64,000 nucleotides of DNA, taken from contig JBBCGO010000001.1 of assembly GCA_037200925.1 (NCBI GenBank), positions 73,552 through 137,551 on the forward strand, read 5' to 3'. This DNA comes from Candidatus Doudnabacteria bacterium (lineage in GTDB: Bacteria > Patescibacteriota > Doudnabacteria > UBA920 > O2-02-FULL-48-8). Below are positions 3,713-58,725 of this stretch, one piece after another. Both the position numbers and the translations under genes were made by a program. Every line of letters starts with the position of its first letter. The stretch's first letter is position 1. The notes beneath the pieces were generated by a model. It saw nothing but the letters and a program-made list of their open reading frames with translations, was not told the DNA's origin and made no database searches.

Positions 3713-4738
3713 TTATTTGCAGGTGATCAATTTATTGGCCAGCAAATAATTCAGCAGATCTTGGGCTATGGCCTTGTGTCCTTCCGGGTTCGGGTGCTGG
3801 TCGGGAAAGACCTTGCCTGCTTTCACCAGATCCAGCGGGCTTTCGTAGAGATAGGTCCCATCACGCGATTTGCTGTAATTTTCCAACAACAACGCGGGAT
3901 TGGTTGTAGTAGATGGGAGCAGGTATTTCGGAGCATAGATCAGCAGATTGTTTTTATATAAGCTGTTAAATTCATTGAAAGCCTGCATGTTGTAGTCGAC
4001 AATTTCCTTCACTGATAATTGTTTGAGGCTGTCTTTGAAAGCCTGATCCCAGACATTAAAAACTTGCGGTTCGATCAGACCACCGCCCAGTTTATTCAGA
4101 TAGTCGTTGACTTTCGGGAGCAGAATTTCGTTAATATAGTCAATATCGTCATACTTTAAGAACCAGATGACCAGATCTGGATCGTATTTTTGTCCCCGAA
4201 GTTTGTACCGCTCTTCCGAATATTTAACATCATATCCCTGAACAGCCAAGTTGATCACTTCAAATTTTTTGTAAGTCGTACAGCCCATGCCGTTTAATTC
4301 ATCTTCCAGGACCTTAGGATAACTCTGTTCATTATTGACGAATAACCCGTACGTGAAAGAATCACCCAGGGTGATAATCCGGAATGTGCCCGGAGGTTTG
4401 TCGGGCGTGTAATCAGTAGTGCCGCGGAGCGTATCGTGGTTTATGTGATAGGTCGGCTTAATTTTCAACCAGTCTGGTACGCCGTTATTTGCCTCGCTAT
4501 CGGCCTTCGGTTCGTAGAAATATTTCAGACTCGATTGGTCGGGAAAAGTTACGCTGCTGCCCGCGATCGTGCTGAAAGAAGGAGTTGACGATAATATTTT
4601 CTTCCTGTGATAATCCGTGACAAGATAAACCACAGCTTCAAGTTCAAGAAGGATTATCAAGATTATAGCAAGGTTTCTGAATTTTCTTTTTGTATCGTTC
4701 ATGCGGCAGGAGGGTTGACTGATGACTTTACTTTTCAT
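3713..4738 (-). CDS. SGNH/GDSL-family hydrolase, membrane anchored (paralog 2)
   Basis: 'RIITLGDSFTYGLF' plus an N-terminal TM. Possible alternative start at 4702 (MNDTKRK). Divergently oriented to 4754..6226, as in the 1146/2191 pair. Confidence 0.7.
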   Translation of the reverse strand: MKSKVISQPSCRMNDTKRKFRNLAIILIILLELEAVVYLVTDYHRKKILSSTPSFSTIAGSSVTFPDQSSLKYFYEPKADSEANNGVPDWLKIKPTYHINHDTLRGTTDYTPDKPPGTFRIITLGDSFTYGLFVNNEQSYPKVLEDELNGMGCTTYKKFEVINLAVQGYDVKYSEERYKLRGQKYDPDLVIWFLKYDDIDYINEILLPKVNDYLNKLGGGLIEPQVFNVWDQAFKDSLKQLSVKEIVDYNMQAFNEFNSLYKNNLLIYAPKYLLPSTTTNPALLLENYSKSRDGTYLYESPLDLVKAGKVFPDQHPNPEGHKAIAQDLLNYLLANKLITCK

Positions 4739-4753
4739 ATTATAGCATAGGAT

Positions 4754-6226
4754 TTGACGCTTCTTCCCATGAAACTAAAACGCTATTATTTTTATTTAGT
4801 CGCAGCCTTGGCTCTTCTGATAGTTGGGTTGATCTTTGTTTATGCCGGTTCTGCCAAAGGCTTGAAGTTAGCTTCAATATTTGAACAGGGCAACCGTTCC
4901 TCGCACACCATCGTGCTTTCCAAGGGCGGCTTCAGTCCCGGCAACCTTACCATAAAAAAAGGGGATTGGGTGACTTTCACCACTACTGCCGGTCAGCAAT
5001 TTTGGCCGGCCTCAGACCCTCACCCTACACACAGCATCTATCCGGATTTTGATCCGAAACGGCCTGTCGATCCGGGTAAATCATGGAGTTTTCAGTTTGA
5101 AAAAGAAGGAACTTTCCCGTATCACGATCACTTTATTCCAAGCCTGGGAGGAACCATTGTCGTCGGCCACGCGAGTGAGATCGGAGAGAATTGCGCTGAA
5201 GATACTCAAAATCAATATTTGTGTTGGTCGAAAATGATCGATGAATCTTTGCGCAATAACGGGCTTAATTCAGCTTTCTCGCTGGTAGAAAACTTATATC
5301 AGACGCAGCCGGCATTTGCCGGCGATTGCCACCTGTTCCTTCACAAGCTGGGACAGGCGGCCTATGAAGAATTTGCAGATAAACAGGACATTGCCTTGAC
5401 CAGCGCGTCCGCCTACTGCGGTTACGGGTTTTATCACGGTTTTATGGAAAGTCTGCTTATGCAGTCGAACAATTATTCTAAGGCTTTGGAGTTTTGCCAA
5501 AAAGTTTCAGCAGAAATGTCGCAATCCTTGTCTGATGCGTGTTATCATGGAGTAGGGCATGGCGCCATGGCCGTGGGCACTATTGACCAAGCGACCTGGG
5601 GCAAGCCCGATTCTTTGGTAAGCAAGGCTTTGGCGATCTGCAATAAAGTGGCAGACTCTTCGGTAAATGTCGCGCGCTGCGCTTCCGGCTCGTTCATGGA
5701 AATTTCAAGTTATTTGTCGGGCAGCCAGTATGGTTTGTCCGCAGACGCAAAAAATCCGCTGAAGATATGCCAAGCTCAAACCGCAGAAGACATAAAAACG
5801 ACCTGCTATGCCCAGATGTATCCTGTTCTGCAGGCAGTGAGCCGCGGGAGCGTGCCCGCTGCGATCAAATATATAGAAGCGATCCCGGAAGATAATTACG
5901 CGGAAGAATCGGTAGAAACCCTTCTCGGGTCCATGGCCGGGATAAACAGCGATCAGTCAAAAAACGTGCAGGCTTGCTCTGCGGCGCAAAAGCGCCTGCA
6001 AGCCAAGTGTATCAGCGGAATTGCCTTAAGCTTTATGCTGAACGGCACACCTAACGAACAGTATAAGCAGGCGGCCGCCTTCTGCAGCACCGGCGGTTTG
6101 ACGGGCATTGAGAGAGATTCGTGTTATGATCTGATCGTAAATGAATCCAAGAATACTTATTCTGGTTCTCAGCTCCAAAATGCCTGCCAATCCCTGCCCA
6201 GTTATTATCAAAAAAAATGTTTGTAA
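4754..6226 (+). CDS. Secreted cupredoxin-like + His/Cys-rich domain protein (paralog 2)
   Basis: 'WPASDPHPTH...YHDHF', then 'CHLFLHKLG', 'CGYGFYHGF', 'CYHGVGHGA'. N-terminal TM helix. Confidence 0.6.
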   Translation: MTLLPMKLKRYYFYLVAALALLIVGLIFVYAGSAKGLKLASIFEQGNRSSHTIVLSKGGFSPGNLTIKKGDWVTFTTTAGQQFWPASDPHPTHSIYPDFDPKRPVDPGKSWSFQFEKEGTFPYHDHFIPSLGGTIVVGHASEIGENCAEDTQNQYLCWSKMIDESLRNNGLNSAFSLVENLYQTQPAFAGDCHLFLHKLGQAAYEEFADKQDIALTSASAYCGYGFYHGFMESLLMQSNNYSKALEFCQKVSAEMSQSLSDACYHGVGHGAMAVGTIDQATWGKPDSLVSKALAICNKVADSSVNVARCASGSFMEISSYLSGSQYGLSADAKNPLKICQAQTAEDIKTTCYAQMYPVLQAVSRGSVPAAIKYIEAIPEDNYAEESVETLLGSMAGINSDQSKNVQACSAAQKRLQAKCISGIALSFMLNGTPNEQYKQAAAFCSTGGLTGIERDSCYDLIVNESKNTYSGSQLQNACQSLPSYYQKKCL

Positions 6227-7281
6227 AAAATAACCGCAAATTTTTTATTATCGCCGTCGCGCTGATCTTATTTTTCCTGGGCGAATTGTTATTTTTGTCA
6301 GGCAAATTCCGGTCCGTCAAACCCGAGGCCAAGCCGGTTGCGGTAAACAGCCCGCCTGCAGATGCCGAAAAAACGGATCAAAGTTTGCAAATTTCCGCAC
6401 TGGAGCAGAAAGTGAAAGACGATCCCAATGATGCGAATTCGTCGAACAACCTGGCCAGTCTATATTTTCAAACCGGAAAATTTGACCAGGCCAAAGATCT
6501 ATATTCTAATGTTCTCAAAATCAATCCGAAAGACGTCGGAGCGATGACCGGTTTGGCGAATGTCCTGCGTTACCGCGGAGAATATGCCGAATCAGAAAAA
6601 TTGTATCTGGAAGCGATAAAAATCGATCCGGGCAATGCCTGGTCATACATTGATTTCGGGAAACTCTATCGTGACTGGAATAAACCGGCCCAAGCCGAAG
6701 CGGTTTTAATGCAAGCCGCGAAACTCAACCCCAAAGATGATAGGATATATTCTTACGGCCTGGGGTTTTTGTACAGAGATGAAGGCCGGCTTCCCGAAGC
6801 GGAAAAAATGTTCAACAAAGCCCTTCAGCTGAACCCGAATGATTATAATTACATGTCCATGGGCGATATTTACCGCGATGAGGGCAAATTTGCGGAATCA
6901 GAAACCATGTTCAAAAAAGCCCTTGAGTTAAATCCCTTGAACGAAGCTTATATGGGTATGGGGTATCTATACCTTCAGGAAGGTAAATTGGATAAAGCTG
7001 AAGAATCTTTTCAAACGTACTTGAAGCTGATCAAGCCGAAAAGCGAGGTCTATGAAGGCTTGGGCTACATCTATATCTCACAGGGCAAGCTTGCCGACGC
7101 GGAGAATGCGTTCAAAAACTCCATTGCAGTCAACCCGCACTTGTTCGGATATTTGGGCTTAGCCAGGGTCTATAATGTTGAAGGCAAGAAAGACGAAGCC
7201 ATACAGGCATTGAAAAAATCCATTGAATTGAATCCGGATGACAAAGCGGGGCCGGCCTTACTTAAACAATTGGAAGGATGA
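6217..7281 (+). CDS. TPR-repeat protein with N-terminal TM helix
   Basis: About eight degenerate 34-aa TPR units ('LASLYFQTGKFDQAKDLYSNVLKINPKD', 'YMGMGYLYLQEGKLDKAEESF'). Start overlaps the upstream stop, and its stop overlaps the next start (ATGA at 7278). Confidence 0.75.
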   Translation: MFVKNNRKFFIIAVALILFFLGELLFLSGKFRSVKPEAKPVAVNSPPADAEKTDQSLQISALEQKVKDDPNDANSSNNLASLYFQTGKFDQAKDLYSNVLKINPKDVGAMTGLANVLRYRGEYAESEKLYLEAIKIDPGNAWSYIDFGKLYRDWNKPAQAEAVLMQAAKLNPKDDRIYSYGLGFLYRDEGRLPEAEKMFNKALQLNPNDYNYMSMGDIYRDEGKFAESETMFKKALELNPLNEAYMGMGYLYLQEGKLDKAEESFQTYLKLIKPKSEVYEGLGYIYISQGKLADAENAFKNSIAVNPHLFGYLGLARVYNVEGKKDEAIQALKKSIELNPDDKAGPALLKQLEG

Positions 7282-8468
7282 GAACTTTAGCCAACAAAAA
7301 TTTTTTTCTTGTTCTCGCTGCCGCGATTTTGCTTGCCGGTTTGATTTTGGTTTTAGCTCATGCCAAAACCAGATCTCTTGCCGCCGGCAAGCAACAAACA
7401 TCTGCTGGGACCGACTGCTCCGCTTCAAACAACCAAGAGCTATGCTGGCAGCAGCAGATGAAACAGACATTGCAATCGCAAGGCCTGCCCGCGGCATTTG
7501 ATATACTGGCAAATCTTTACGACACTGCGCCGGCGTTTGCCTCGCAGTGCCATGCCTTTACCCACGAGCTGGGCCAGGAGGCATATGAAATGTTCGCATC
7601 GCACCAGGACTTCGAGCTTAATTCCAAAACCCAGTATTGCGGTTACGGGTTCTATCACGGTTTTATGGAAACGCTGCTGCAGAGCACAGGCGATGTCAGT
7701 CAGGCGCAGAATTTTTGCGCCTATGTCGGAAAGAAGCTTGCCGGCCAAACGTCCGACGGCGAGGGCGCCTGTTATCACGGCATCGGCCATGGCGCCGTCG
7801 ACGGCACGGATATAAAAGCCTGGGGAAACCCGCAGGCAATGATCGATCCCAGCTTAAAGCTTTGCAAATTTGCTTCCGGCGACAACCAGCAATTTTTATA
7901 CCGCTGCGTGACGGGTGTTTACAATGCTTTGGAAATACTTTCTTCTGACCCCCAGTACAAGCTGACAATGATCCAGAAAAATCCTTTCTGGCTGTGTCCG
8001 AGCCAGCCGGAATTTTATAAAGAACCGTGTTACACGAATATGCTGCCGTCCCTGCTTAGGTTTACAAATAATGACTTGGTGAAATCCGAGAAAATGATAG
8101 AAAAAATTCCTGAACAGACAGCCATAAAAACCACTGTCTCATACAGCCTGTTCCATGAATTTATCCGGCTGAATTTGGAGCGGCCGAATTATAATATAGA
8201 AAATGGCGTGCAGATCTGCCACGGTCTGGCAGACCCTTACCGTCTGTCATGTATCGAAGGCTTGGCCGGCGGACACATGAAATACGGCGATCCCCAACAG
8301 GCGTACGTCAAAGGCCTGGCGTTTTGTAAAATGCCGATCTTGAAAAGCGACGAAGAGGATTCATGCTATAATACAATCCTGACACGCCTGCCGATCTGGT
8401 ATTCTCCGGCAAAATCCGCTGAGATCTGCAGTTCCGTGGATGTAAAATTCCAAACTTACTGCCGATAA
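7278..8468 (+). CDS. Secreted His/Cys-rich domain protein (paralog 3; no fused cupredoxin domain)
   Basis: 'CHAFTHELG', 'CGYGFYHGF', 'CYHGIGHGA'. Same Cys spacing as the C-terminal halves of 2191 and 4754. Confidence 0.6.
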   Translation: MRTLANKNFFLVLAAAILLAGLILVLAHAKTRSLAAGKQQTSAGTDCSASNNQELCWQQQMKQTLQSQGLPAAFDILANLYDTAPAFASQCHAFTHELGQEAYEMFASHQDFELNSKTQYCGYGFYHGFMETLLQSTGDVSQAQNFCAYVGKKLAGQTSDGEGACYHGIGHGAVDGTDIKAWGNPQAMIDPSLKLCKFASGDNQQFLYRCVTGVYNALEILSSDPQYKLTMIQKNPFWLCPSQPEFYKEPCYTNMLPSLLRFTNNDLVKSEKMIEKIPEQTAIKTTVSYSLFHEFIRLNLERPNYNIENGVQICHGLADPYRLSCIEGLAGGHMKYGDPQQAYVKGLAFCKMPILKSDEEDSCYNTILTRLPIWYSPAKSAEICSSVDVKFQTYCR

Positions 8469-8475
8469 ACTTTTT

Positions 8476-8913
8476 ATGAATAAAAAAATAATAATTATTC
8501 TGCTGTGCGTCATTGTGCTTGTTCTGGGAGTCTACGCTTATAAATTAGCTTTCGTAAAGCCGTCTGACGCGGGGACAAGCCAGGCTGACTCAAATTCCGA
8601 ACCGGCTAAGTTTTCGACCCAGGATAAAATATTGCCGACCGATGTCGTCGTGAAAGTGACGGACAACGGTTTTGTGCCGGACTCGGTTACTGTTAAAAAA
8701 GGGACTCCGGTCGTGTGGCTGAACCAGACCAGCAGTTTTGTCTGGCCGGCGTCCGACCCACACCCCCTGCATACGGACTATCCCGGGTTCGATCCGCAGG
8801 AGCCGTTCAAGAATGGCGAAACTTGGGCTTTTACTTTTGACCGCGTGGGAAATTGGGGATACCATAACCACCTGCAGCCCAGCATGAAGGGAACTGTGCA
8901 CGTAACTGAATGA
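8476..8913 (+). CDS. Stand-alone cupredoxin-like domain protein with N-terminal TM
   Basis: 'WPASDPHPLHTDYPGFDPQEP...GNWGYHNHLQPSMKGTVHV' matches the N-terminal domains of 2191 and 4754. Lies immediately downstream of the His/Cys-domain gene, so it looks like a domain split in permuted order. Confidence 0.6.
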   Translation: MNKKIIIILLCVIVLVLGVYAYKLAFVKPSDAGTSQADSNSEPAKFSTQDKILPTDVVVKVTDNGFVPDSVTVKKGTPVVWLNQTSSFVWPASDPHPLHTDYPGFDPQEPFKNGETWAFTFDRVGNWGYHNHLQPSMKGTVHVTE

Positions 8914-15914: not shown

Positions 15915-16628
15915 ATGAAACTAATTCCCAAGCGCTATTTGATAATAGTAAGCATCTTTGTCATCGGAATATTTTTAACCGTTGCAGCTTACAGCACGCT
16001 TCGCTTTCATGAGAAAAATAAAACACCAGTTTCTGCGGACAGCGCAAAGTCTGAACCTATCGTCCGATCACCTCAGGAAATGCTTAAGGAGCTGAGCAGG
16101 AACTCCCCTCAATTAGGAAGTCCAAACGCCCCGATTCAGGTCGTGGAATTTGCGGATTTTCAATGCCCATACTGCGAACAGTTTTATGCCACTGCTTTTA
16201 ATCAGATAAATGATAAGTATGTTAAAACAGGAAAGGTAAAATTTATTTTTGCCGACGCCCCGATCATCGGAGAAGAGTCGACGATCGCGGCCCGCGGAGG
16301 CAAGTGTGCGGATGAGCAGGGAAAATTTTGGGACTATTACAATTATTTGTTTCAGCATCAGAAACCCGAGAATAACGGCAACCTGAGAACATCTAATTTG
16401 AAAAAGATAGCTTTGCAGATCGGTCTCGATGGAGAGCAGTTTGACGCTTGCCTGGATTCGCAAAAATACGCTTCCGAGGTATCTGATGAATTGAAACTTT
16501 TCGGCGTGCTTGGCATTACCGGGACGCCTGGATTTGTCATTAATGATCAGGTAGTATCAGGCTATAAAGCGGGGGTAATTCAGGGGATAATTGATAAAGA
16601 ATTGAAGTCTATCGATCCGAATCCTTGA
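15915..16628 (+). CDS. DsbA/thioredoxin-family thiol:disulfide oxidoreductase, membrane anchored
   Basis: 'VVEFADFQCPYCEQF' CPYC active site, plus an N-terminal TM. Confidence 0.8.
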   Translation: MKLIPKRYLIIVSIFVIGIFLTVAAYSTLRFHEKNKTPVSADSAKSEPIVRSPQEMLKELSRNSPQLGSPNAPIQVVEFADFQCPYCEQFYATAFNQINDKYVKTGKVKFIFADAPIIGEESTIAARGGKCADEQGKFWDYYNYLFQHQKPENNGNLRTSNLKKIALQIGLDGEQFDACLDSQKYASEVSDELKLFGVLGITGTPGFVINDQVVSGYKAGVIQGIIDKELKSIDPNP

Positions 16629-34974: not shown

Positions 34975-35100
34975 TGTATAATTAATCCAACAACTGAATA
35001 TATATCAAGAGTGGCGGTGAAAGCTCTGGCTTTATGACCCGCCCGGCAACCCTCAACAAGAGAAGGTGCCAATTCCAGCCTCTAACGAGGAAAGATAATA

Positions 35101-35130
35101 AAAAAACTTTCCTTCCGGAAGGTTTTTTTG
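35101..35130. terminator. Bidirectional rho-independent terminator between convergent genes
   Basis: 'aaaaaaactttCCTTCCGGAAGGttttttt': a perfect 12-bp palindrome flanked by A and T tracts. Confidence 0.8.
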
Positions 35131-35147
35131 TAAAAAAAGAAGCCTCG

Positions 35148-35534
35148 CTAGCGCGGGCTTGGTTTGAGGGGCACAGGGTCAACCAGTTGTTTTACGCAGT
35201 TGATCGCTGCTCCGTACTCGGCAAAAATTTCCTTAGGCAGCGCCTTGACCTTTTTTTTCAGGTCTTCCTGAACCGCTTGAGAGTTGGCGACGAAGACCAA
35301 AGGCTTGTGCATGTTCGCGAACACCGATTTGGTCTGGATCATGAACTCGCACGTATCCCGTTCAAACCGTTCCAGATGGGTCAGGTCGAACACAACAATG
35401 TTGAGCTTTTGGATAAAGCCAGGACGAAGCCCGAAGGTCAGCAGACCGATCTCTTGTTCGCTCATGGATTCGCCGATAATGATCTTGAGCATGCGAGCCT
35501 TAGGCCAGTCGCCGTTGTTCACTGAAATCGACAT
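35148..35534 (-). CDS. STAS-domain protein (anti-sigma-factor-antagonist-like)
   Basis: 'FDLTHLERFERDTCEFMIQTKSVFANMHKPLVFVANSQAVQEDLKK' fits a STAS core. AAGGAG ribosome-binding site before the ATG at 35534; the ORF track extends to 35558. Confidence 0.45.
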   Translation of the reverse strand: MSISVNNGDWPKARMLKIIIGESMSEQEIGLLTFGLRPGFIQKLNIVVFDLTHLERFERDTCEFMIQTKSVFANMHKPLVFVANSQAVQEDLKKKVKALPKEIFAEYGAAINCVKQLVDPVPLKPSPR

Positions 35535-35608: not shown

Positions 35609-36547
35609 ATGCTTAAAACAGCCGAATTTGTCAGTCCCAAACACCCGGATAAAGTCTGCGATTTCATCGCAGATTCGATTTTGGACGCGTATCTTAAAGA
35701 TGACAAGGAAAGCCGGGTGGCGATCGAGGTCATGGGCGGTCATAAATTGATCACGATAAACGGGGAAGTCACTTCGCTGTCAAAACCAGATCTTGAAAAA
35801 TTGGTGCAAAATATTGTCGGCCTTGATTACAGGATCATCATCAATTTAACAATGCAAAGCGCGCAGATCGCCCAAGGAGTCGACATTGGAGGAGCAGGCG
35901 ACCAAGGTATTATGAAAGGGTATGCTACTAGCGAAACTCCGGCATACCTCCCGCTTGAATTCACTCTGGCCAGGGATCTTTGTAAAAAAATTTACGAAGT
36001 GTATCCGTATGACGGGAAAACGCAAGTGACGATCGAAAATGGGAATGTGGTCACCGTTGTGGCCAGTTTTCAAAATACAAAAAATGTCGAACTTTTAAAA
36101 CTTGTGCGGAATAATATGGAAGCCCGCGAGTATTTGATAAACCCGGCAGGAGAATGGACGCAAGGCGGATTCGATGCAGATACGGGTCTTTCAGGCAGAA
36201 AACTGATCATTGATAATTATGGGCCTGAGATACCAATCGGAGGAGGATCGTTTTCCGGCAAGGATTATACAAAAGTAGACAGGTCGGGCGCATATATGGC
36301 GCGCAAGATCGCTGTAGAGCTTATAAAGGATCGGAAAGCCAAGGAGGTTTATACTAAACTGGCATATGCTATAGGCAAAAGAGAGCCTGTCATGGCAGTG
36401 GCTATTATAGACGGCAAGGAAGAAGGAATTGTGGGCTTTGACCTGAGTCCTACCGGGATACGCCAATATCTTAAATTAGACCAAGTAAAATTTGCCGATA
36501 CGGCTACATGGGGCCATTTCGGACGAGGGTTTCCTTGGGATAAATAA
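35609..36547 (+). CDS. metK: S-adenosylmethionine synthetase, compact 312-aa form
   Basis: 'SPKHPDKVCDFIADSILDA', 'GAGDQGIMKGYATSET', 'GGGSFSGKDYTKVDRSGAYMAR', 'GHFGRGFPW' all align to MetK. About 70 aa shorter than the E. coli enzyme, distributed over all three domains. Confidence 0.85.
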   Translation: MLKTAEFVSPKHPDKVCDFIADSILDAYLKDDKESRVAIEVMGGHKLITINGEVTSLSKPDLEKLVQNIVGLDYRIIINLTMQSAQIAQGVDIGGAGDQGIMKGYATSETPAYLPLEFTLARDLCKKIYEVYPYDGKTQVTIENGNVVTVVASFQNTKNVELLKLVRNNMEAREYLINPAGEWTQGGFDADTGLSGRKLIIDNYGPEIPIGGGSFSGKDYTKVDRSGAYMARKIAVELIKDRKAKEVYTKLAYAIGKREPVMAVAIIDGKEEGIVGFDLSPTGIRQYLKLDQVKFADTATWGHFGRGFPWDK

Positions 36548-37405: not shown

Positions 37406-37978
37406 ATGAAAATAATCCTCGGTTCAGGATCGCCAAGACGCCAAGAAATATTGAAAAATTGGGGTTATAATTTTGACGTCAGGATCCCACAGATCGATGA
37501 AAGATCAATCAGATCCGATGATTTCAAGTCTTTACCGGTTTTAATAGCTAGGAGCAAATCGGAAAATTTGAGAGAAAAAATCACCGAGCCTGCGATCTTA
37601 ATTACTTGCGATACGGTTGTTGTTCATGACGGCAAGCTCTATGAAAAGCCGCTGAGTGATGACGAGGCCCGGTCTTTTTTACTGTCCTACGGCAGCACAC
37701 CTGCGGAAGTGATATCCGGCGTAGTAGTTATGAATACCGAGAACAAAAAAATCGCGGAAGGAGTGGATTCGGCAAAAGTATATTTTTTGAAAATCCCGCT
37801 CAGTTTGATCGAAGAGATGATTTTGCTGGGGAAGGTTTTCGACTGGGCCGGCGCTTTCCATCCGGCCGATCCTGCTATCAAGCCGTACATAGCATATATT
37901 GAGGGCGAAAAAGATACGGTCATGGGATTGCCTGGATTTTTGACCAGGCGGCTGATCGACGAGGTTTCAAATGGATAA
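37406..37978 (+). CDS. maf: Maf-family nucleoside triphosphate pyrophosphatase
   Basis: 'MKIILGSGSPRRQEIL' Maf N-terminus. The ORF track starts at 37181; the internal ATG at 37406 is preferred. Confidence 0.8.
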   Translation: MKIILGSGSPRRQEILKNWGYNFDVRIPQIDERSIRSDDFKSLPVLIARSKSENLREKITEPAILITCDTVVVHDGKLYEKPLSDDEARSFLLSYGSTPAEVISGVVVMNTENKKIAEGVDSAKVYFLKIPLSLIEEMILLGKVFDWAGAFHPADPAIKPYIAYIEGEKDTVMGLPGFLTRRLIDEVSNG

Positions 37979-38468
37979 AAAACAGATCGTCGTGGCTGTG
38001 TCCGGCGGATTTGATCCGATACATCCGGGACACATCCGAATGTTCAAGGAAGCCAAAGCCTTGGGCGACAAATTGGTGGTAATTCTGAATAATGACAATT
38101 GGCTTTTGAAAAAGAAAAAATTTAATTTTATGTCCCAGAAAGAACGGAAAGAAGTTATCGAAGCGATCAAATACGTGGACGAGGTTTTAATTTCGAAGCA
38201 CAAGTTTGATACGGACGATATGAGCGTCAGTGAAGAATTGCGGACGATCAAGCCCGATATATTTGCCAACGGGGGCGACCGCAATCCTGCGGACGCAAGG
38301 AAAAAGAATTCTTCTTTGAGCAGGGATCTGGCCGTATGCTTAAGATACGGCATCAAGATGGTCTACAATGTCGGCGCCGGCGGGAAGATCCAGTCCAGCT
38401 CAATGCTGGTGGATAAAGCGATGAGGACTGCGCCCCGCAAGGTGGACGTGAAAATCAGGAAAAAATAA
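37971..38468 (+). CDS. Cytidylyltransferase-family nucleotidyltransferase (TagD / RfaE-domain-II-like)
   Basis: 'GGFDPIHPGHIRMFKEAKALGDKLVVIL' (H/T)xGH motif, 'RYVDEV'-like 'KYVDEVLI'. Confidence 0.65.
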   Translation: MDKKQIVVAVSGGFDPIHPGHIRMFKEAKALGDKLVVILNNDNWLLKKKKFNFMSQKERKEVIEAIKYVDEVLISKHKFDTDDMSVSEELRTIKPDIFANGGDRNPADARKKNSSLSRDLAVCLRYGIKMVYNVGAGGKIQSSSMLVDKAMRTAPRKVDVKIRKK

Positions 38469-48163: not shown

Positions 48164-50185
48164 TCAGGCCAAAAAACTGATTATAAGAAGAGCCACGATA
48201 TTGATGATCTTGATCATGGGGTTGATGGCAGGGCCTGCAGTATCTTTGTAAGGATCGCCGACAGTATCACCCGTGACCGCGGCTTGATGCGCCAAAGAGT
48301 TCTTGCCGCCGTAATTGCCTTCTTCAATATATTTTTTTGCATTATCCCAAGCCGCCCCGCCGGAGGTCATGGAGATAGCCACGAACAGGCCGGTAATGAT
48401 CGAGCCGACCAGTACGCCTCCCAATGCTTTGGCGCCCAAGAACGGGATTATGCCGACCAGGATCGGCACCACAACCGGCAATAAAGCAGGCACGATCATT
48501 TCTTTAATAGCAGCCTTGGTCACGATGTCGACAGCTTTGCCGTAATCGGGTTTGGCCGTGCCGGCCATGATGCCGGGAATTTCCTTGAACTGTCTGCGGA
48601 CCTCTTCCACTACGGCGTGTCCCGCTTTACCTACTGCCTGCATGGCCATGGAAGCGAACAGGTACGGCAGCAAGGCCCCGATGATCAATCCGGCCAAAAC
48701 TTTTACGTCAGACAGATCAAACGTCAGATGTTTGCCAAGAGCATTTAACTCTTCCGTGTAAGAAGCGAATAATACGACTGCGGCCAATCCCGCTGATGCG
48801 ATCGCATAACCCTTGGTCACAGCCTTGGTCGTATTGCCCACCGCATCCAAAGCATCAGTTGATTCGCGTACAGATTCCGGCAGGCCCGCCATTTCCGCAA
48901 TGCCGCCCGCATTGTCCGTGATGGGTCCGAAAGCGTCAATCGCTACGATAATGCCGGCCATGGAGAGCATGGAAACCACGGCGATGGCTGTGCCGTAAAT
49001 ACTGGAGCCGGGAAGGCCATCGAGCCCGCCAAAGTGATAAGAAAGCAAGATCCCGCTGATGATTGCAAGCACCGGCAGCGCCGTGGCTTGCATGGATACA
49101 GCCAGGCCCGTGATTATATTCGTGCCGTGCCCTGTTGTTGAGGCTTCGGCAATTGACCGGACGGGCTTGAATTTTTTTGACGTGTAATATTCGGTTATCA
49201 GGACCATGGCCGCGGTAACTCCCAAGCCGACTAGAGTTGAATAAAAAAAGCCTTTGCTGAAAAGCGGAATGAACAGGCTTTTGGTGACCCAGTAAAATCC
49301 GAGCGCCGCCAGAATAGCGGATACTGCCAGGCCCTTATAAAGCGCAGTCATGATGGCTTTGTCCACAAGCCGGACAAAGAATGTGCCGATAATGGAAGCA
49401 AAGATCGATACGGCGCCCAGTGCCAGAGGATAAAGAATGAAAAGAGAGTTGCCTTTAAATATAATGTTGCCCAAAAGCATGGCCGCGATGGTGGTCACGG
49501 CGTAGGTTTCAAACAGGTCCGCGGCCATGCCGGCATCATCCCCGACATTGTCGCCGACATTGTCCGCGATCACCGCAGGATTCCTGGGGTCATCTTCCGG
49601 AATGCCGGCTTCAATTTTTCCGACCAGATCAGCCCCGACATCCGCGCCTTTGGTAAAGATCCCTCCGCCAAGCCGGGCAAACACTGAGATCAGGCTCGCT
49701 CCAAAAGCCAGGCCGACCAGGGATTTGATGTCCCCTGTAAATTTATAAAATAAGGTCACTGCCAAAAGCCCTAAGCCCACAACAAAAAATCCCGTGACCG
49801 CCCCTCCTTTGAAAGCCAGCGAGAAAGCAGGCTCTAGCCCGGACTTGGCCGCTTCGGCTGTGCGGACATTGGCTCTCACGGCCACGAACATTCCGATAAA
49901 CCCGGCGCATGCCGAGGCTATCGCTCCGACTGCGAATCCTTCCGCGGAATGAACACCCAGATATTTCCAGATTATCAGATCCAGGACCACTGCCACCACT
50001 GCCACAGTCGAATATTGGCGGAAGAGAAATGCATTTGCGCCTTCCTGGATGGCGGCTGCGATCTCCTGCATTTTTTTATCGCCCGTAGGTTTTCCCAGGA
50101 CCCAATAAGTGATGATCAGTCCGTAAGCAATTGCAGCCAACCCCGCGACGACCGAAAGCATGAAAATACTTGATTCTGAGAGCAT
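48164..50185 (-). CDS. hppA: Membrane-bound H+/Na+-translocating pyrophosphatase (V-PPase)
   Basis: '[18 protein letters not shown]', '[26 protein letters not shown]'. About 16 TM helices. Confidence 0.9.
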
Positions 50186-52269: not shown

Positions 52270-52343
52270 TGGGGAGTAGCCAAGTGGTAAGGCAATGGAC
52301 TCTGAATCCATCATCGAAGGTCCGAATCCTTCCTCCCCAGCCA
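52270..52343 (+). tRNA. tRNA-Gln (anticodon CUG), CCA encoded
   Basis: 'TGGGGAG...CTCCCCA' acceptor stem with U1-A72, as in E. coli tRNA-Gln. D-arm 'GCCAAGTGGTAAGGC', anticodon loop 'CTCTGAA', T-arm 'GAAGGTCCGAATCCTTC', then GCCA. Confidence 0.85.
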
Positions 52344-52847: not shown

Positions 52848-53315
52848 ATGAAAAAATATCTGATTTCGATTGCCGTGGTTCTGATTTTTGGGTTCTATGT
52901 CGCCTACGAGAGAGGCGTTTTTAAAAGAAATGATAACAATATAGCGGTTTATCCTGATCCGGTAAGCCAGGTTCCGCCCGCTCCGGCACCCTCTCCGACA
53001 CCTGCACCAACCCCGACGCCGGTGGCGTCAGGGCAGTATAAGGATGGAGAATATACAGGTAATGTAGCTGACGCGTTTTACGGCCCTTTGCAGGTTAAAG
53101 CTGTAATCAGCGGCGGTAAGATCACTGATGTGCAATTTTTGCAGTATCCGAATGATAGGCCTGAATCAATCCAGGTCAATACTGCTTCTAACCCGATACT
53201 TAAGAAGGAAGCGATCGCAACCCAAAGCGCGAAAGTAGATATTGTGTCCGGAGCCACGCAAAGCAGCGAAGCGTTTCAGCAATCACTGGCTGCAGCGCTG
53301 GGTCAGGCCAAATAG
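52848..53315 (+). CDS. Membrane-anchored FMN-binding domain protein (flavinylation substrate)
   Basis: N-terminal TM, a Pro/Thr/Ala linker, and FMN_bind domain 'GEYTG...LQVKAVISGGKITDVQFL...DIVSGATQSSEAF' with the [S/T]GA[S/T] flavinylation motif. Confidence 0.75.
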   Translation: MKKYLISIAVVLIFGFYVAYERGVFKRNDNNIAVYPDPVSQVPPAPAPSPTPAPTPTPVASGQYKDGEYTGNVADAFYGPLQVKAVISGGKITDVQFLQYPNDRPESIQVNTASNPILKKEAIATQSAKVDIVSGATQSSEAFQQSLAAALGQAK

Positions 53316-53318
53316 CGC

Positions 53319-54047
53319 ATGAAACAAACGAAGATAATAATGGGCATGCCGGTTACGGTTGAAATAATCGATGATAAAGACCCGGAAGTTTTAGGCCGGG
53401 TTTTTGATTATTTTACCGAAGTTGATGAAAGGTTCAGTACCTATAAAAAGGAAAGCGAAATCAGCAGGCTCAACTGCGGCGAAATTGCGCTTGCTGACGC
53501 AAGCGGAGAAATGAAGACCGTATTTGAACTGGCGGAAAAAACAAAAAATGAAACTCGCGGATATTTTGACATTAGAAAACCGGACGGCAATTTCGATCCA
53601 TCCGGACTTGTCAAAGGCTGGGCGATCAATAATGCCGCAAAATTATTAGACCGGGAGGGAGTTAAAGAATTTTATGTTGAAGCCGGCGGCGACATCCAAA
53701 CCGCGGGCAAGATCTGGAAAATCGGGATTAAAAATCCGTTCAATCAAAAAGAAATTATCAAAGTTGTTCATCTGCGCGGCCAAGGGATAGCAACATCGGG
53801 GTCATACGAGCGCGGGAACCATATTTACAACCCTCACCAAAAAGGGCAAAATATTGACGAGATCGTCAGTTTAACTGTCATCGGACCGAATGTGTATGAA
53901 GCCGACCGGTTTGCCACAGCCGCGTTTGCAATGGGCAGGGACGGGATTATCTTCATCGAAAACCTTTCCGGGTTTGAAGCATACATGGTAGATAAAAAAG
54001 GGATCGGTACAGAGACAAGCGGGTTTGGAAAGTATACAAATGCTTAA
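53319..54047 (+). CDS. apbE: ApbE-family FAD:protein FMN transferase, short form
   Basis: 'MGMPVTVEIIDDKD', 'SEISRLN', 'FDPSGLVKGWAINNAAKLL', 'VEAGGDIQTAGK'. Confidence 0.75.
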   Translation: MKQTKIIMGMPVTVEIIDDKDPEVLGRVFDYFTEVDERFSTYKKESEISRLNCGEIALADASGEMKTVFELAEKTKNETRGYFDIRKPDGNFDPSGLVKGWAINNAAKLLDREGVKEFYVEAGGDIQTAGKIWKIGIKNPFNQKEIIKVVHLRGQGIATSGSYERGNHIYNPHQKGQNIDEIVSLTVIGPNVYEADRFATAAFAMGRDGIIFIENLSGFEAYMVDKKGIGTETSGFGKYTNA

Positions 54048-55542
54048 TTTCATAGATAACTATCTGAACAAGATCACGATGTACCGTCTGGTGCTGTATT
54101 TTTTGGCGGCACTTATGATCTGGGCTATCGGTCTTTGTTTTTTTGGTGTTCTGGCGTTCAAACCACTTGATCTTATTTTTTCAGCCGTTATTTTGATAGC
54201 GGCCTCGTGGATAGCCAACGCCCTGTTCGCCGCGGCTTTTAAAGTTCCTGCCAACGTTGAATCAGATTATATTACAGCTCTGATTTTAGCGCTGATCATC
54301 ACACCGCCGTCAGCCACCGGCTCTCATTATTTTTCGGGATTGGCTTTTCTGATCGCAGCAGCTGTGCTGGCGCAGGCTTCCAAGTATATTTTGGCTTACA
54401 AGGCAAAACATATTTTTAACCCGGCGGCATTTGCTCTGGTCGTAACCGCATTTACTATCAACCAGTCGCCCAGCTGGTGGATCGGAACGCTTTGGATGCT
54501 GCCGGTGGTGCTGATCGGCGGGCTTTTGGTCGCGCGAAAGATCCAAAGGTTTGACCTGGTTCTAAGTTTCCTGGTCATGGCTCTAGTTTCAATTATTGCC
54601 CTGTCTCCCTCCAAATCAGATCCGGTATTTTTGGTTCGCAAGATCCTTGTTGATTCACCGATCGTGTTTTTTGCCTTTATCATGCTGACCGAGCCTGTCA
54701 CAACACCGCCGACCATGAGGCGGAGGATCTTTTATGGCGCATTCGTCGGGTTGCTGTTCGGCCCTTCGGTCCACATCGGCAATATTTACTCCACGCCTGA
54801 GCTTGCGTTAGTGGTGGGAAATGTTTTTGCTTATATTCTGAGCCCAAAAGTAAAGCACCTTCTAACCCTTAAATCTAAAGAAGCCGTTGGTGCGGATACT
54901 TATGACCTCGTCTTCCAATCCAAACACCCGATGAAATTTGAGCCGGGCCAGTATCTGGAATGGACCGTCGGCCATAAAAAACCCGACAATCGGGGCAACC
55001 GCAGATACTTTACTATCGCCTCGTCGCCTACGGAACCGGAAGTGCATCTTGGCGTAAAATTTTATCCTCAAGCAAGCAGCTTTAAACGAACTTTGTTCGA
55101 TCTGCCTGCCGGCAGCCATGTTCTGGCCGGTCAACTAGCAGGTGATTTTACCTTGCCCCAAGATCAGGCGAGAAAACTGGCTTTTATCGCAGGAGGCATA
55201 GGCATCACGCCTTTTAGGAGCATGGTCAAATACCTGTCGGATAAAAATGAAAAGCGCGACATTGTCCTGTTCTATTCGAACAAAACCGAGGGAGAGGTCG
55301 CGTATAAGGACGTTTTATCGGCAGCTTCCGAAAAGATAAACTTGAAAACGATCTACCTGATAACGGAAAAAACAGGCTATTTGACTGCTGAAAAGATCAG
55401 GGCGGAAGCGCCGGATTTTTTTGACCGGACTTTTTATGTTTCCGGCCCGCGCGGCATGGTCCGGGCTTTTGAAAAGACCTTAAATGATATGGGCATTCCC
55501 AGAACGCAGATCAAGACAGACTTTTTCCCGGGTTTTGTTTGA
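54025..55542 (+). CDS. Polytopic membrane protein fused to an FNR-like FAD/NAD(P)-binding oxidoreductase domain
   Basis: An ~8-TM N-terminal half, then 'RYFTIASSP' (RxYS FAD motif), 'AFIAGGIGITPFRSM' (NAD(P) GxGxxP) and 'FYVSGPRGMV'. Confidence 0.65.
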   Translation: MESIQMLNFIDNYLNKITMYRLVLYFLAALMIWAIGLCFFGVLAFKPLDLIFSAVILIAASWIANALFAAAFKVPANVESDYITALILALIITPPSATGSHYFSGLAFLIAAAVLAQASKYILAYKAKHIFNPAAFALVVTAFTINQSPSWWIGTLWMLPVVLIGGLLVARKIQRFDLVLSFLVMALVSIIALSPSKSDPVFLVRKILVDSPIVFFAFIMLTEPVTTPPTMRRRIFYGAFVGLLFGPSVHIGNIYSTPELALVVGNVFAYILSPKVKHLLTLKSKEAVGADTYDLVFQSKHPMKFEPGQYLEWTVGHKKPDNRGNRRYFTIASSPTEPEVHLGVKFYPQASSFKRTLFDLPAGSHVLAGQLAGDFTLPQDQARKLAFIAGGIGITPFRSMVKYLSDKNEKRDIVLFYSNKTEGEVAYKDVLSAASEKINLKTIYLITEKTGYLTAEKIRAEAPDFFDRTFYVSGPRGMVRAFEKTLNDMGIPRTQIKTDFFPGFV

Positions 55543-55614: not shown

Positions 55615-56629
55615 ATGCCAAAAATAATGGCGGAATATATCTGGGTTGACGGGGGAAAACCGACGGCCAGCCTGCGCTCAAAGACAAAAATTTTGGATTA
55701 TGAGGTCAGGATCTTATCTGACGCACCGGACTGGGGATTTGACGGCTCTTCCACTATGCAGGCCGAAGGCCCACAACAGCGATTGCGCACTGAAGCCCGT
55801 GTTCTTTGTCCCTGACCCGATCCGCGGTGCGCCGCACGTTTTGGTTTTATGCGAAGTTTTTGAAGCAAGCGGCATGGCGCATCCGAGCAATACCCGTGCG
55901 AGACTTCGAACTCTCGCAGAAACATACAAAGACCTGGAACCGTGGTTTGGCATAGAACAGGAATACACTTTATTTAAAAACGAGCGACCGCTGGGATTTC
56001 CCAAGGATGGGTTTCCTGCTCCACAAGGGCCATACTATTGCGGCGTCGGTGCGGAAAAGATCTTCGGCAGGGGATTGATAGAGGACCATATGGGCGTTTG
56101 CATAAGAGCCGGCCTTCAGATCTGTGGCATCAATGCCGAAGTTATGCCGGGGCAATGGGAATTTCAAATAGGTCCGTTGGGCTCTCTGGCGGTTTCAGAT
56201 CACATGATGGTCGCCCGATGGCTTTTGGAAAGGCTGGGGGAGAACTACGGCATTGCGGTTTCTTTTTCACCCAAACCGGTCTTGGGCGACTGGAACGGTG
56301 CCGGGGGCTCACGTAAATTTTTCCACCAAGGCCATGCGAGCGCCGGGAGGAATAGAAGCCGTCAAAGAAGCCTGCGAGAAACTGAAATTGAAGCATACCG
56401 AGCATATTGCCGTTTACGGGGGCGGGAAATGGACACCAGGCTGACCGGAAAGCACGAAACCGCAAACATCAACGAATTTCGATATGGCGTTTCTGATCGC
56501 GGAGCATCGATCAGAATTCCCATGTCCACCGCCAACAATAAATCCGGCTATTTGGAGGACAGAAGGCCTGCCGCAAACATGGACCCTTATCAGGTTACGG
56601 CACGGTTGATCGAAACCGTTGCCGGCTGA
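55615..56629 (+). pseudogene. glnA: Type II (eukaryote-like) glutamine synthetase, disrupted by three homopolymer frameshifts
   Basis: 'MAEYIWVDGG', 'WGFDGSSTMQAEG', 'LVLCEVF', 'FGIEQEYTLF', 'GPYYCGVG', 'NAEVMPGQWEFQIGP', '[10 protein letters not shown]', '[28 protein letters not shown]' and 'YLEDRRPAANMDPY' are spread over three frames. The shifts are at CCC 55770..55772 (+1), G5 56303..56307 (+1) and AAA 56427..56429 (-1). Confidence 0.8.
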
Positions 56630-57337: not shown

Positions 57338-58725
57338 CTAGTAAGAATCCCGGTCATTGCGATAACTGATACGGTTCGAGTCAAAAGGCTTCCGGTGATT
57401 GGCATCAAAACCCTGGTCCTGCGGCGCTCCCGGCTTGTGCGCGGAAACTGCTCGCGTTGTTTGAAGCGGCTTTTGGATTTTCTGCCTCCTGAGGGGAAAT
57501 TGCCTTGGCCTGTCGCTTCTTGGGAAGCGTTCATTCCTCTGCTGGGTTTGCCGCACATAACCGTGCCTTGGCTGTTCGGGCTGCGTAAACCCTGTTGCCA
57601 GGTCCGGGGATTGTTTTACGGGCAGATTGATCTTGATCAGGCGCTCAATGGACCGAACATCCTGCCTCTGGTCGGGAGTGGCAAACGACACAGCTTTGCC
57701 CGACATTCCTGCTCTGGCCGTTCGGCCGATGCGGGTGCACATAGTCCTCCGGATTTTCCGGCAGGTCATAATTGATAACCAGTTCAATTCCGGTGACATC
57801 AATGCCGCGCGCTGCAATGTCTGTGGCGACGAGAACTCTATGCCGGCCGATCTTAAATCCCTCCAAAGCTTCCTTTCGCTGGCCCAAAGATCGGTTTGAA
57901 TGGATCTCTGATGCGGTATGCCCCATATTTCTTACGGCATGCGCGATCTTTTTTGCGCCGTATTTCGTCCGGGTAAAGATCAGCACCGAACCTTTATGTT
58001 CAGCCCAGAACTTTGGCAAGCAACGCCAGTTTTTTTTCGCGGTTAACAAAAAATACTTCTTGGGTCACATCGCTCGCAGTGGATCCGGCGGGGGCGACTT
58101 CAATCCTTATCGGAAGAGACATGTATGTTGTGGCGATCCGCACGATCGGATCAGGCATGGTGGCGGAGAACAGCATGGTCTGGCGCACCTTCGGGACCTT
58201 TGCCAGAATTTTCCGGATCTGCGGCTCAAAGCCCATATCCAGCATTCGGTCAGCCTCATCCAGGACCAGAATTGAAACGTTTGACAGATCTAGCGTGCGC
58301 TGTTCCAGATGGTCGTTCAACCGCCCCGGCGTGCCGATGACGATATGAGGGTTCTGCCTTAGCGCGCGGATCTGGCGGTTTATAGGTTCGCCGCCGATGA
58401 GCACTGCGGTTTTAAGCCCGAGCGAACGGCCGATCTTTTGTAATGCTTCGTCCACCTGGATGGCCAGTTCACGGGTCGGCAAAATAACCAGACCGCGGCC
58501 TTTATGCTGGACCAGCCGCTGGATCATAGGAATACCAAAAGCCAGGGTCTTGCCGGTCCCTGTTTGAGCAATGCCCATGACATCCTTGCCTGCGATCGCG
58601 ATCGGTATTGATTGATGCTGGATCGGAGTCGGGGTAATAAATTTTAATTGCGCTAAAATCTCCAGAAGCTTAGGCGCAATTCCTAAGCCTTCAAATGAGG
58701 TAGTCTGCAACGCTTGAGCGTTCAT
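57338..58725 (-). CDS. DEAD-box ATP-dependent RNA helicase (RhlE/DeaD-like); the reading frame is broken twice at homopolymers
   Basis: Q motif, 'AQTGTGKT', 'PTRELA', 'DEAD', 'SAT' in ORF 58000..58725. 'VLIFTRTKYG...ARGID' is in ORF 57645..58049. 'RIGRTARAG' is in ORF 57338..57817. Shifts are at plus-strand CCC 58003..58005 and GGG 57733..57735. Confidence 0.8.

Follow-up and report, generated by a model that had tools for sequence, protein, structure and literature searches.

We analysed a 64,000-nucleotide stretch of Candidatus Doudnabacteria bacterium (assembly GCA_037200925.1, contig JBBCGO010000001.1, positions 73,552 to 137,551 of the forward strand), referred to here as the window, and found that three adjacent genes on its plus strand are a member of the published NQR/RNF-like system. 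The genes encode a membrane-anchored FMN_bind protein, a short flavin transferase of the ApbE family, and a membrane protein fused to an FNR-like reductase. Domain identities, the fold of the membrane domain, the conservation of motifs and residues, and synteny were all determined for this locus. We consider it fairly probable that the trio is one operon for a two-subunit, all-flavin transmembrane electron conduit together with its maturation enzyme.

In Méheust 2021 (eLife), NQR/RNF-like systems are flavinylation gene clusters that contain a PF03116-PF00175 fusion, with the fusion gene located within five genes of ApbE and/or FMN_bind; they have been described from Actinobacteria and the candidate phyla radiation (CPR) (Méheust 2021; Huang 2024). 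The window encodes such a protein, with PF03116 in its N-terminal and PF00175 in its C-terminal part, and the FMN_bind and ApbE genes lie directly upstream on the same strand. The AlphaFold-multimer model of the Ktedonobacter racemifer complex, as presented in Huang 2024, contains an NqrB/RnfD-like subunit without a flavinylation site and an NqrC/RnfG-like subunit that docks outside, with its covalent flavin mononucleotide (FMN) near a non-covalent flavin site. The membrane domain of the window fusion likewise lacks the flavinylated Thr of NqrB/RnfD. The original prediction for this DNA, made from its sequence, had called the third gene atypical, whereas this NqrB/RnfD-NqrF fusion is what defines the described system. 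The window locus shares with that system the fusion itself, the adjacent FMN_bind and ApbE genes, the loss of the flavinylation site, the CPR range and the lack of further Nqr/Rnf subunits. We identified no structural difference from the published system; the short leaderless ApbE is noted here.

The existence of the three adjacent genes was confirmed by their open reading frames (ORFs) and Pfam domains. The FMN_bind gene (52848-53315, +) is a 155-aa ORF that ends with TAG, and 3 nt separate this stop from the ATG of the ApbE gene (53319-54047, +; 242-aa ORF). The fusion gene (54025/54040-55542, +) encodes 505 aa from a TTG at 54025 or 500 aa from an ATG at 54040, and this ATG overlaps the TAA stop of the ApbE gene by 8 nt. 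All three ORFs are thus co-directional and tightly packed. A tRNA is located upstream at 52270-52340. No FMN riboswitch or other cis-acting RNA was detected at the operon, and a promoter and terminator scan gave counts no higher than expected from shuffled sequence. An NCBIfam scan returned only sub-threshold matches (including the RsxD, RnfD, NqrB and NqrF models) and no named equivalog.

The NqrB/RnfD-like membrane domain and its reductase module

The original prediction had described the membrane part of the fusion protein (residues 1-270, 54040..54849, +) as an approximately 8-helix transmembrane domain of unrecognised family. Neither description held. A match to PF03116 (NQR2_RnfD_RnfE) scored 33.2 bits against a gathering cutoff of 27.7 over residues 158-272. 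A profile built from 24 members of the fusion family matched RnfD of A. vinelandii (8ahx_D, E=1.7e-4) and NqrB of V. cholerae, the latter in two collinear segments. Residues 1-275 were modelled alone, since Foldseek matches of the full-length model were dominated by the FNR module. The resulting AlphaFold2 model (predicted local distance difference test score (pLDDT) 89.3, predicted TM-score (pTM) 0.88) displayed about ten membrane helices, a number of which are short. When this model was compared with the PDB, the top 15 Foldseek matches were all RnfD or NqrB (probability 1.00, query TM-score (TMq) 0.55-0.68), and the next match had an E-value of approximately 0.4. The best structural matches were to RnfD (9eri_D, 8rbq_D and 7zc6_D, TMq 0.65-0.68). 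These data identify the membrane domain of the fusion protein as a homologue of NqrB/RnfD.

Residues of NqrB were mapped onto the fusion protein by profile alignment, with the numbering verified by the G141A mutant chain and functional roles taken from Hau 2023. This analysis revealed a deletion of the NqrB-type flavinylation loop: the NqrB segment 193-272, with T236 in it, is reduced to about 32 positions here, a loss of about 48 residues, and the window protein reads INQSPSWW at the junction. Only one of 120 members of the fusion family carried an [ST]GA[ST] motif. Four functional residues of NqrB aligned with invariant positions, namely the riboflavin ligands T162 and D346 (T79 and E218 here), the acid E157 at the cytoplasmic channel entry (E74) and the gate residue F338 (F210). 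Others were not kept. The second gate residue, F342, is replaced by I/V214, the periplasmic-exit acid E273/E274 by T150 and the acid E144 by N60; D52 could not be aligned. The fusion protein and RnfD have an FNPA motif in common (N127-P128-A129), through which N127 and A129 probably correspond to NqrB N203 and A205. The loop at N248 is the counterpart of P376 of NqrB, which touches NqrC at the periplasmic face. This position on the outer face therefore suggests that the last helix runs inward and that the FNR domain is cytoplasmic.

The FNR-like domain, a predicted flavin adenine dinucleotide (FAD)/NAD(P)H reductase, spans residues 273-500 (54856..55542, +). PF00175 (NAD_binding_1) matched residues 387-483 (E=1.9e-11, 45 bits against a cutoff of 22), while PF00970 (FAD_binding_6) scored 20.6 bits, slightly below its 21.1-bit cutoff, and PF08030, a ferric-reductase NAD-binding family, gave a weak match of 20.3 bits in this domain. 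The fusion to an FNR-like domain and its GGIGITP motif were as originally predicted; the FAD motif, in contrast, is RRYFT (RRYFTIAS in the window) and not RxYS. A C-terminal DFFPGF motif is also present. Motif counts were made in the best 120 of at least 7,900 relatives of the fusion protein (471-561 aa, 55-100% identical), and RRYF[TS] was present in 120, GGIG[IV]TP in 117 and DFFPGF in 99 of them. Profile matches of the FNR domain in the PDB included flavohemoglobin and NqrF at about 1e-16. Consistent with this, Foldseek analysis of the full-length model (pLDDT 85.8) found flavohemoglobin, the dehydrogenase domain of SpNOX and NqrF for the FNR module. PF01794, the transmembrane domain of bis-haem ferric-reductase type, had no match in the fusion protein in the Pfam scan.

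The FMN_bind subunit, its leaderless ApbE and their linkage to the fusion gene

The first gene of the trio (52848..53315, +) encodes a membrane-anchored member of the NqrC/RnfG family and the predicted substrate of ApbE. A Pfam scan matched PF04205 (FMN_bind) with an E-value of 2.1e-9 (38.3 bits against a cutoff of 22), and a weak match to the PplA family was also seen. The protein consists of an N-terminal MKK followed by a hydrophobic anchor of about 18-20 residues (Kyte-Doolittle hydropathy 1.9), as would suit a signal anchor, then a linker rich in Pro and the FMN_bind domain at residues 78-151. The flavinylation motif named in the original prediction (DIVSGATQSS) is present as S134-G135-A136-T137 (53247..53258, +; context VDIVSGATQSS), and the sequence D131-I-V-S-G-A-T137 matches the motif D-x-x-[st]-g-A-[ST]. 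T137, located 18 residues from the C-terminus, is the predicted site of phosphoester attachment of FMN. All 22 FMN_bind homologues kept both the MKK plus hydrophobic anchor and an [ST]GA[ST] motif at the same position, about 20 residues from the C-terminus. The SGAT of the window protein also aligns with that of 8p2a, its closest solved relative, which we take to be a domain of the multi-flavinylated protein of S. azureus on the basis of the title and highlights of a paper in BBA Adv. 2023.

The second gene (53319..54047, +) encodes a short, predicted ApbE-family FAD:protein FMN transferase of 242 aa, as anticipated (PF02424, E=3.8e-39 in the Pfam scan). The protein aligned to the ApbE structures of E. 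coli and Salmonella with E-values of 1e-16 to 1e-18, core motifs included, and shares TSGSY, H-x-x-[ND]-P and EAD..T with E. coli ApbE. Core motifs were kept in 104-120 of the 120 closest homologues (TSGxY and H..[ND]P in 119-120). No signal peptide, lipobox or hydrophobic leader was found in the window ApbE, and a hydrophobic leader was present in none of the 120 closest homologues (232-268 aa). In the ORF only 7 residues precede MGMP, the first motif of the beta-strands, and an in-frame TAG two codons ahead of the ATG excludes a start further upstream; public gene models begin 7-9 codons further downstream, so that an exact-match look-up of the 242-aa sequence returned nothing. The same arrangement was seen in the homologues: 114 of the 120 closest have MG[MT], and in 111 of these its distance from the N-terminus is 0-10 residues.

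Since the window ApbE has no signal peptide or lipobox, the extracytosolic flavinylation proposed originally is an assumption. Some ApbEs are cytosolic and act on cytoplasmic substrates, for example in K. pneumoniae (ApbE review), and ApbE is able to modify a 7-residue tag, best at a protein terminus. Because a short tag suffices and termini are preferred, it is conceivable, as speculation, that the C-terminal SGAT is modified in the cytoplasm ahead of translocation, which if true would spare the cell from exporting FAD. The filter applied in Méheust 2021 asked for only one signal peptide per cluster, and the shortness and leaderlessness of ApbE is a point not raised in the available portions of Méheust 2021 and Huang 2024. 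It raises the question of where and how an exported protein gains its covalent FMN.

We also considered whether FMN_bind and ApbE might be joined by read-through or recoding, as the two ORFs are in the same frame in the window, with the TAG and one codon between them. This candidate was rejected because the frame relation varies across loci (start offsets of 0 mod 3 in L002, L006 and L011, and of 2 mod 3 in L009, L010 and L014) and the stop codon is TAG rather than TGA.

Database relatives of the fusion protein number at least 7,900. The top 120 were nearly all annotated with PF00175 and mostly with PF03116 too, and the closest homologues bearing names were from Patescibacteria/CPR lineages. 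Searches with the membrane domain alone yielded 1,801, 849 and 399 clusters at 50% identity (E <= 1e-3, 1e-10 and 1e-30, respectively). With at least 7,900 sequences and 399-849 clusters at 50% identity, the family is much larger in metagenomes than the 127 genomes first reported, and this size, together with a uniformly leaderless dedicated ApbE, is an addition to the published picture.

Synteny was analysed on contigs from one genome per species, among which 33 loci carried a fusion relative and 25 of these had at least 1.5 kb of sequence upstream. The order FMN_bind, ApbE, fusion was identified in 19 of these 25 species-level loci, and also in L002 and L006. Because the same order recurs in this way, the arrangement of the trio is no chance adjacency. 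Four of the 25 loci (L029, L030, L031 and L035) had a divergent anchored protein and a 288-290-aa ApbE upstream of the fusion gene. The divergent protein (170-190 aa) gave a weak FMN_bind match in L031 and none in L029 or L035, the three loci scanned, and the variant ApbE was 27-29% identical to the window ApbE and likewise leaderless. Neither FMN_bind nor ApbE was located by the fusion gene in the remaining two loci.

The genes that flank the trio vary between loci. No conserved fourth gene was identified, the best candidates occurring in 8 and 6 of 36 loci and being absent from this window. These were an anchored Gly/Gln-rich protein of about 147 aa near the trio in 8 loci (e.g., L009:2381-2824), and an ECF-type (extracytoplasmic function) sigma factor with a putative anti-sigma partner downstream of the trio in 6 (e.g., L017:6542-7611). 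An ABC ATPase, also absent from this window, was found near the trio in 6 of the 36 loci. In the two related loci L025 and L035, an anchored cupredoxin lies directly 3' of the fusion gene (L025:6026-6526 and L035:6517-7005), and the L035 protein carries a classical C...H...M blue-copper site. These cupredoxins may be lineage-specific electron acceptors. A cupredoxin as conserved acceptor was rejected, however, given that only 2 of the 25 loci have one next to the fusion gene and that the three cupredoxin-like genes of the window are 44-50 kb away.

Comparison with known systems, proposed electron path and alternative roles

The locus shares with the Na+-NQR of V. cholerae the NqrB fold, including T162, D346, E157 and F338 (T79, E218, E74 and F210), an FMN_bind protein of the NqrC Pfam family and an FNR module that resembles the FAD/NADH domain of NqrF. 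In contrast to Na+-NQR, it has no NqrA, NqrD or NqrE, no 2Fe-2S ferredoxin domain and no evident quinone partner; its NqrB-like domain has no covalent-FMN loop, and the FNR module is fused directly to the membrane domain. Electron flow in Na+-NQR is inward to quinone, whereas we propose that it is outward here, through the NqrB-like domain. Rnf complexes (A. woodii, A. vinelandii and C. tetanomorphum) provided the best structural matches of the membrane domain and share its FNPA and M-x-T-[DE]-P motifs; unlike Rnf, the locus has no RnfA, RnfB, RnfC or RnfE, no ferredoxin- or Fe-S-dependent chemistry and no RnfD flavinylation site. The original statement that NqrA-F and RnfA-G subunits are missing was therefore right in part: homologues of NqrB/RnfD, NqrC/RnfG and the FAD/NAD module of NqrF are present, and the others were absent from the scanned genes of the window. 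No six-subunit NqrA-F or RnfA-E,G set was found among the scanned likely genes of the 64-kb window or in the annotation at +/-6 kb, and no cytochrome or quinone enzyme was identified among those genes.

The flavin-based extracellular electron transfer system of Listeria (Ndh2, PplA and FmnB) is alike in that an ApbE-type enzyme flavinylates an anchored extracytosolic FMN_bind protein, as predicted here, and this protein passes electrons to external acceptors. The Listeria route, however, relies on a type-II NADH dehydrogenase and the quinone pool, and its FmnB is secreted as a lipoprotein, whereas the window encodes a single fusion predicted to span the membrane and a leaderless ApbE. In NOX enzymes and ferric reductases, such as SpNOX of S. 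pneumoniae, an electron conduit across the membrane is likewise followed by an FNR-type NAD(P)H dehydrogenase at the C-terminus. Their membrane domain is a six-helix bis-haem module, in contrast to the RnfD/NqrB fold found here, which is the predicted flavin holder. Judged from the model, the NOX likeness of the membrane part is analogy, not homology.

We infer the following electron path, including its cofactors, donor, direction and membrane topology. The cytoplasmic FNR-like domain, holding FAD, would oxidise NAD(P)H and pass electrons to a non-covalent flavin in the NqrB/RnfD-like domain, at the equivalent of the riboflavin site (T79, N127/A129 and E218). From there they would reach the FMN carried covalently on T137 of the anchored FMN_bind subunit, which would dock on the outer face and so replace the lost NqrB-type covalent FMN. 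The conserved riboflavin-site residues and NqrC-contact loop lend this docking indirect support. Final transfer would be to an extracytosolic acceptor encoded outside the operon. ApbE would attach the FMN, with FAD as its source. Such a chain would need no haem, Fe-S cluster or quinone, and its likely role in a fermenter of reduced genome would be disposal of reducing equivalents or reduction of an external substrate. We consider this route, from NAD(P)H through FAD, membrane flavin and outer covalent FMN to an external acceptor, fairly probable and more likely than any of the alternatives. A minimal NAD(P)H-to-flavin export chain had been put forward in the original prediction; it matches the published one and is consistent with the synteny and residue conservation described above, but the leaderless nature of ApbE had been overlooked.

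CPR bacteria are usually regarded as strict fermenters, and to our knowledge CPR/Patescibacteria are without haem, quinones or respiratory complexes. The NQR/RNF-like system is one of very few membrane redox modules in these bacteria. Should the prediction for the conduit be correct, no simpler all-flavin transmembrane electron wire would be known, and episymbionts would have in it a candidate route for shedding reductant or reducing external substrates.

Several observations weigh against the outward conduit. The correspondence of N127/A129 with NqrB N203/A205 was obtained through the FNPA motif in the RnfD alignment and not by direct alignment to NqrB. No acceptor gene next to the operon was conserved over the 36 loci compared. 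A full-text literature search returned no further paper on the NQR/RNF-like system and no biochemistry. ApbE is leaderless in the window and in its 120 closest homologues, even though its substrate appears to be exported, and the anchor of the window FMN_bind protein has an ambiguous charge bias, with 2 K/R on its N-terminal side against 3 on its C-terminal side. The last two of these would fit a system without export, in which FMN_bind and ApbE act on the cytoplasmic face and the complex is an NAD(P)H:flavin oxidoreductase that is intracellular or faces the membrane, as with the cytosolic ApbEs and cytoplasmic substrates of K. pneumoniae (ApbE review). We regard this arrangement as improbable. 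The K/R bias over the 22 FMN_bind homologues favours an N-in/C-out orientation, S/T/P-rich linkers follow the anchor in the FMN_bind protein and its homologues, and both the NqrC-contact surface of NqrB and the pocket left empty by the lost FMN lie on the outer side, across from the FNR domain. The published AlphaFold-multimer model (Huang 2024) also puts the FMN_bind-type subunit outside.

Other alternatives keep the conduit and differ in its purpose. It could be an assimilatory reductase that reduces extracellular Fe(III), or another metal, for uptake. The FNR domain is weakly similar to PF08030 (20.3 bits), 3 loci have, close to the trio, a predicted transcription regulator that judged by eye may be Fur-like, and a VIT1 ferrous-iron transporter was reported in 6 of 127 NQR/RNF-like clusters in Méheust 2021. 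This VIT1 association nevertheless concerns only about 5% of the published clusters, neither an iron transporter nor VIT1 was identified among the scanned genes of the window, and no iron-related gene recurred over the 36 loci, so that a metal role appears unlikely, if less so than the cytoplasmic arrangement. A NOX-like NAD(P)H oxidase, in which the exposed covalent FMN would reduce O2, or a quinone or flavin derived from the host, for redox balance or oxygen defence, is about equally doubtful; it would amount to a flavin-based equivalent of the haem-based NADPH oxidases. The architecture parallels SpNOX, which was among the top structural matches of the full model, and 3 loci have an MsrB-like gene in the neighbourhood of the trio. 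The closest solved relative of the FMN_bind protein is 8p2a, and the soluble S. azureus protein that binds three FMN has a potential of -184 mV and dioxygen as acceptor (ApbE review). The argument proceeds by analogy alone, though, the reaction of flavin with O2 may be incidental, and no oxidative-stress gene was consistently linked to the trio. A redox-driven Na+/H+ pump, or a gradient-driven reverse reaction, through a retained NqrB-type channel seems as improbable as a complex confined to the cytoplasmic face. The ion path of Nqr sits in NqrB (Hau 2023), and two of its residues, E157 and F338, align with the invariant E74 and F210. The proton-pumping pyrophosphatase gene that had been linked to the chain is real (48164-50185, minus strand, PF03030) and lies 2.7 kb upstream, but no conserved association with the trio was seen in other loci. 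The replacements of E273/E274 by T150, E144 by N60 and F342 by I/V, and the unaligned D52, argue against a pump, and the residues that are conserved are also riboflavin-site or structural residues. Nqr coupling moreover needs large movements of NqrC between NqrD/E and NqrB (Hau 2023), and NqrD/E are absent here. Least probable of all is a two-subunit, flavin-only energy converter, in which outward flow would drive Na+/H+ export (through E74 and F210) and the FMN subunit would be flavinylated in the cytoplasm by the leaderless ApbE before its own export; if true, it would give CPR bacteria a respiratory-like coupling site.

Other features of the window

The other scanned likely genes of the window have cell-envelope, Sec, polyamine and housekeeping functions. 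At one end lies a paralogous cluster of membrane-anchored proteins (2191-3708, 4754-6226, 7278-8468 and 8476-8913, all +) that alternates with GDSL/SGNH-like genes (1146-2324 and 3713-4738, both -). The cluster proteins have an N-terminal cupredoxin-like domain (PF13473) and a Cys-rich C-terminal domain without a Pfam match; one copy consists of the cupredoxin-like domain alone and one of the C-terminal domain alone. The cupredoxin-like domain carries His-rich WPASDPHPTH...YHNH motifs and no type-1 Cu cysteine. These proteins are related to the L025 protein encoded downstream of the fusion gene (E ~1e-17).

Just downstream of the trio, a glutamine synthetase gene (55615-56629, +) is apparently split between two reading frames, with the N-terminus encoded at 55615-55815 and the rest at 55646-56629; NCBI calls only the Gln-synt_C part. 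Either a frameshift, decay to a pseudogene or a mistake in the assembly accounts for this. A DEAD-box helicase gene (57338-58725, -) is likewise broken into three overlapping ORFs (58000-58725, 57645-58049 and 57338-57817), so that two apparent frameshift clusters occur within 3 kb of each other, which suggests indel errors in this region or decay of the genes.

A SAM-I (S-adenosylmethionine) riboswitch (34999-35100, +, 57 bits) was identified upstream of the SAM synthetase gene (35609-36547, +), with a 163-aa ORF (35034-35525) that has no Pfam match between the two. A small cytidylyltransferase-like protein (37971-38468, +) gave a weak FAD_syn match (E=3.8e-4). This protein may be either an FMN adenylyltransferase that supplies FAD to ApbE or an unrelated nucleotidyltransferase. 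Finally, a DsbA/thioredoxin-like protein (15915-16628, +; PF13462, E=5e-32), unlinked to the operon, is likely another extracytosolic redox protein.

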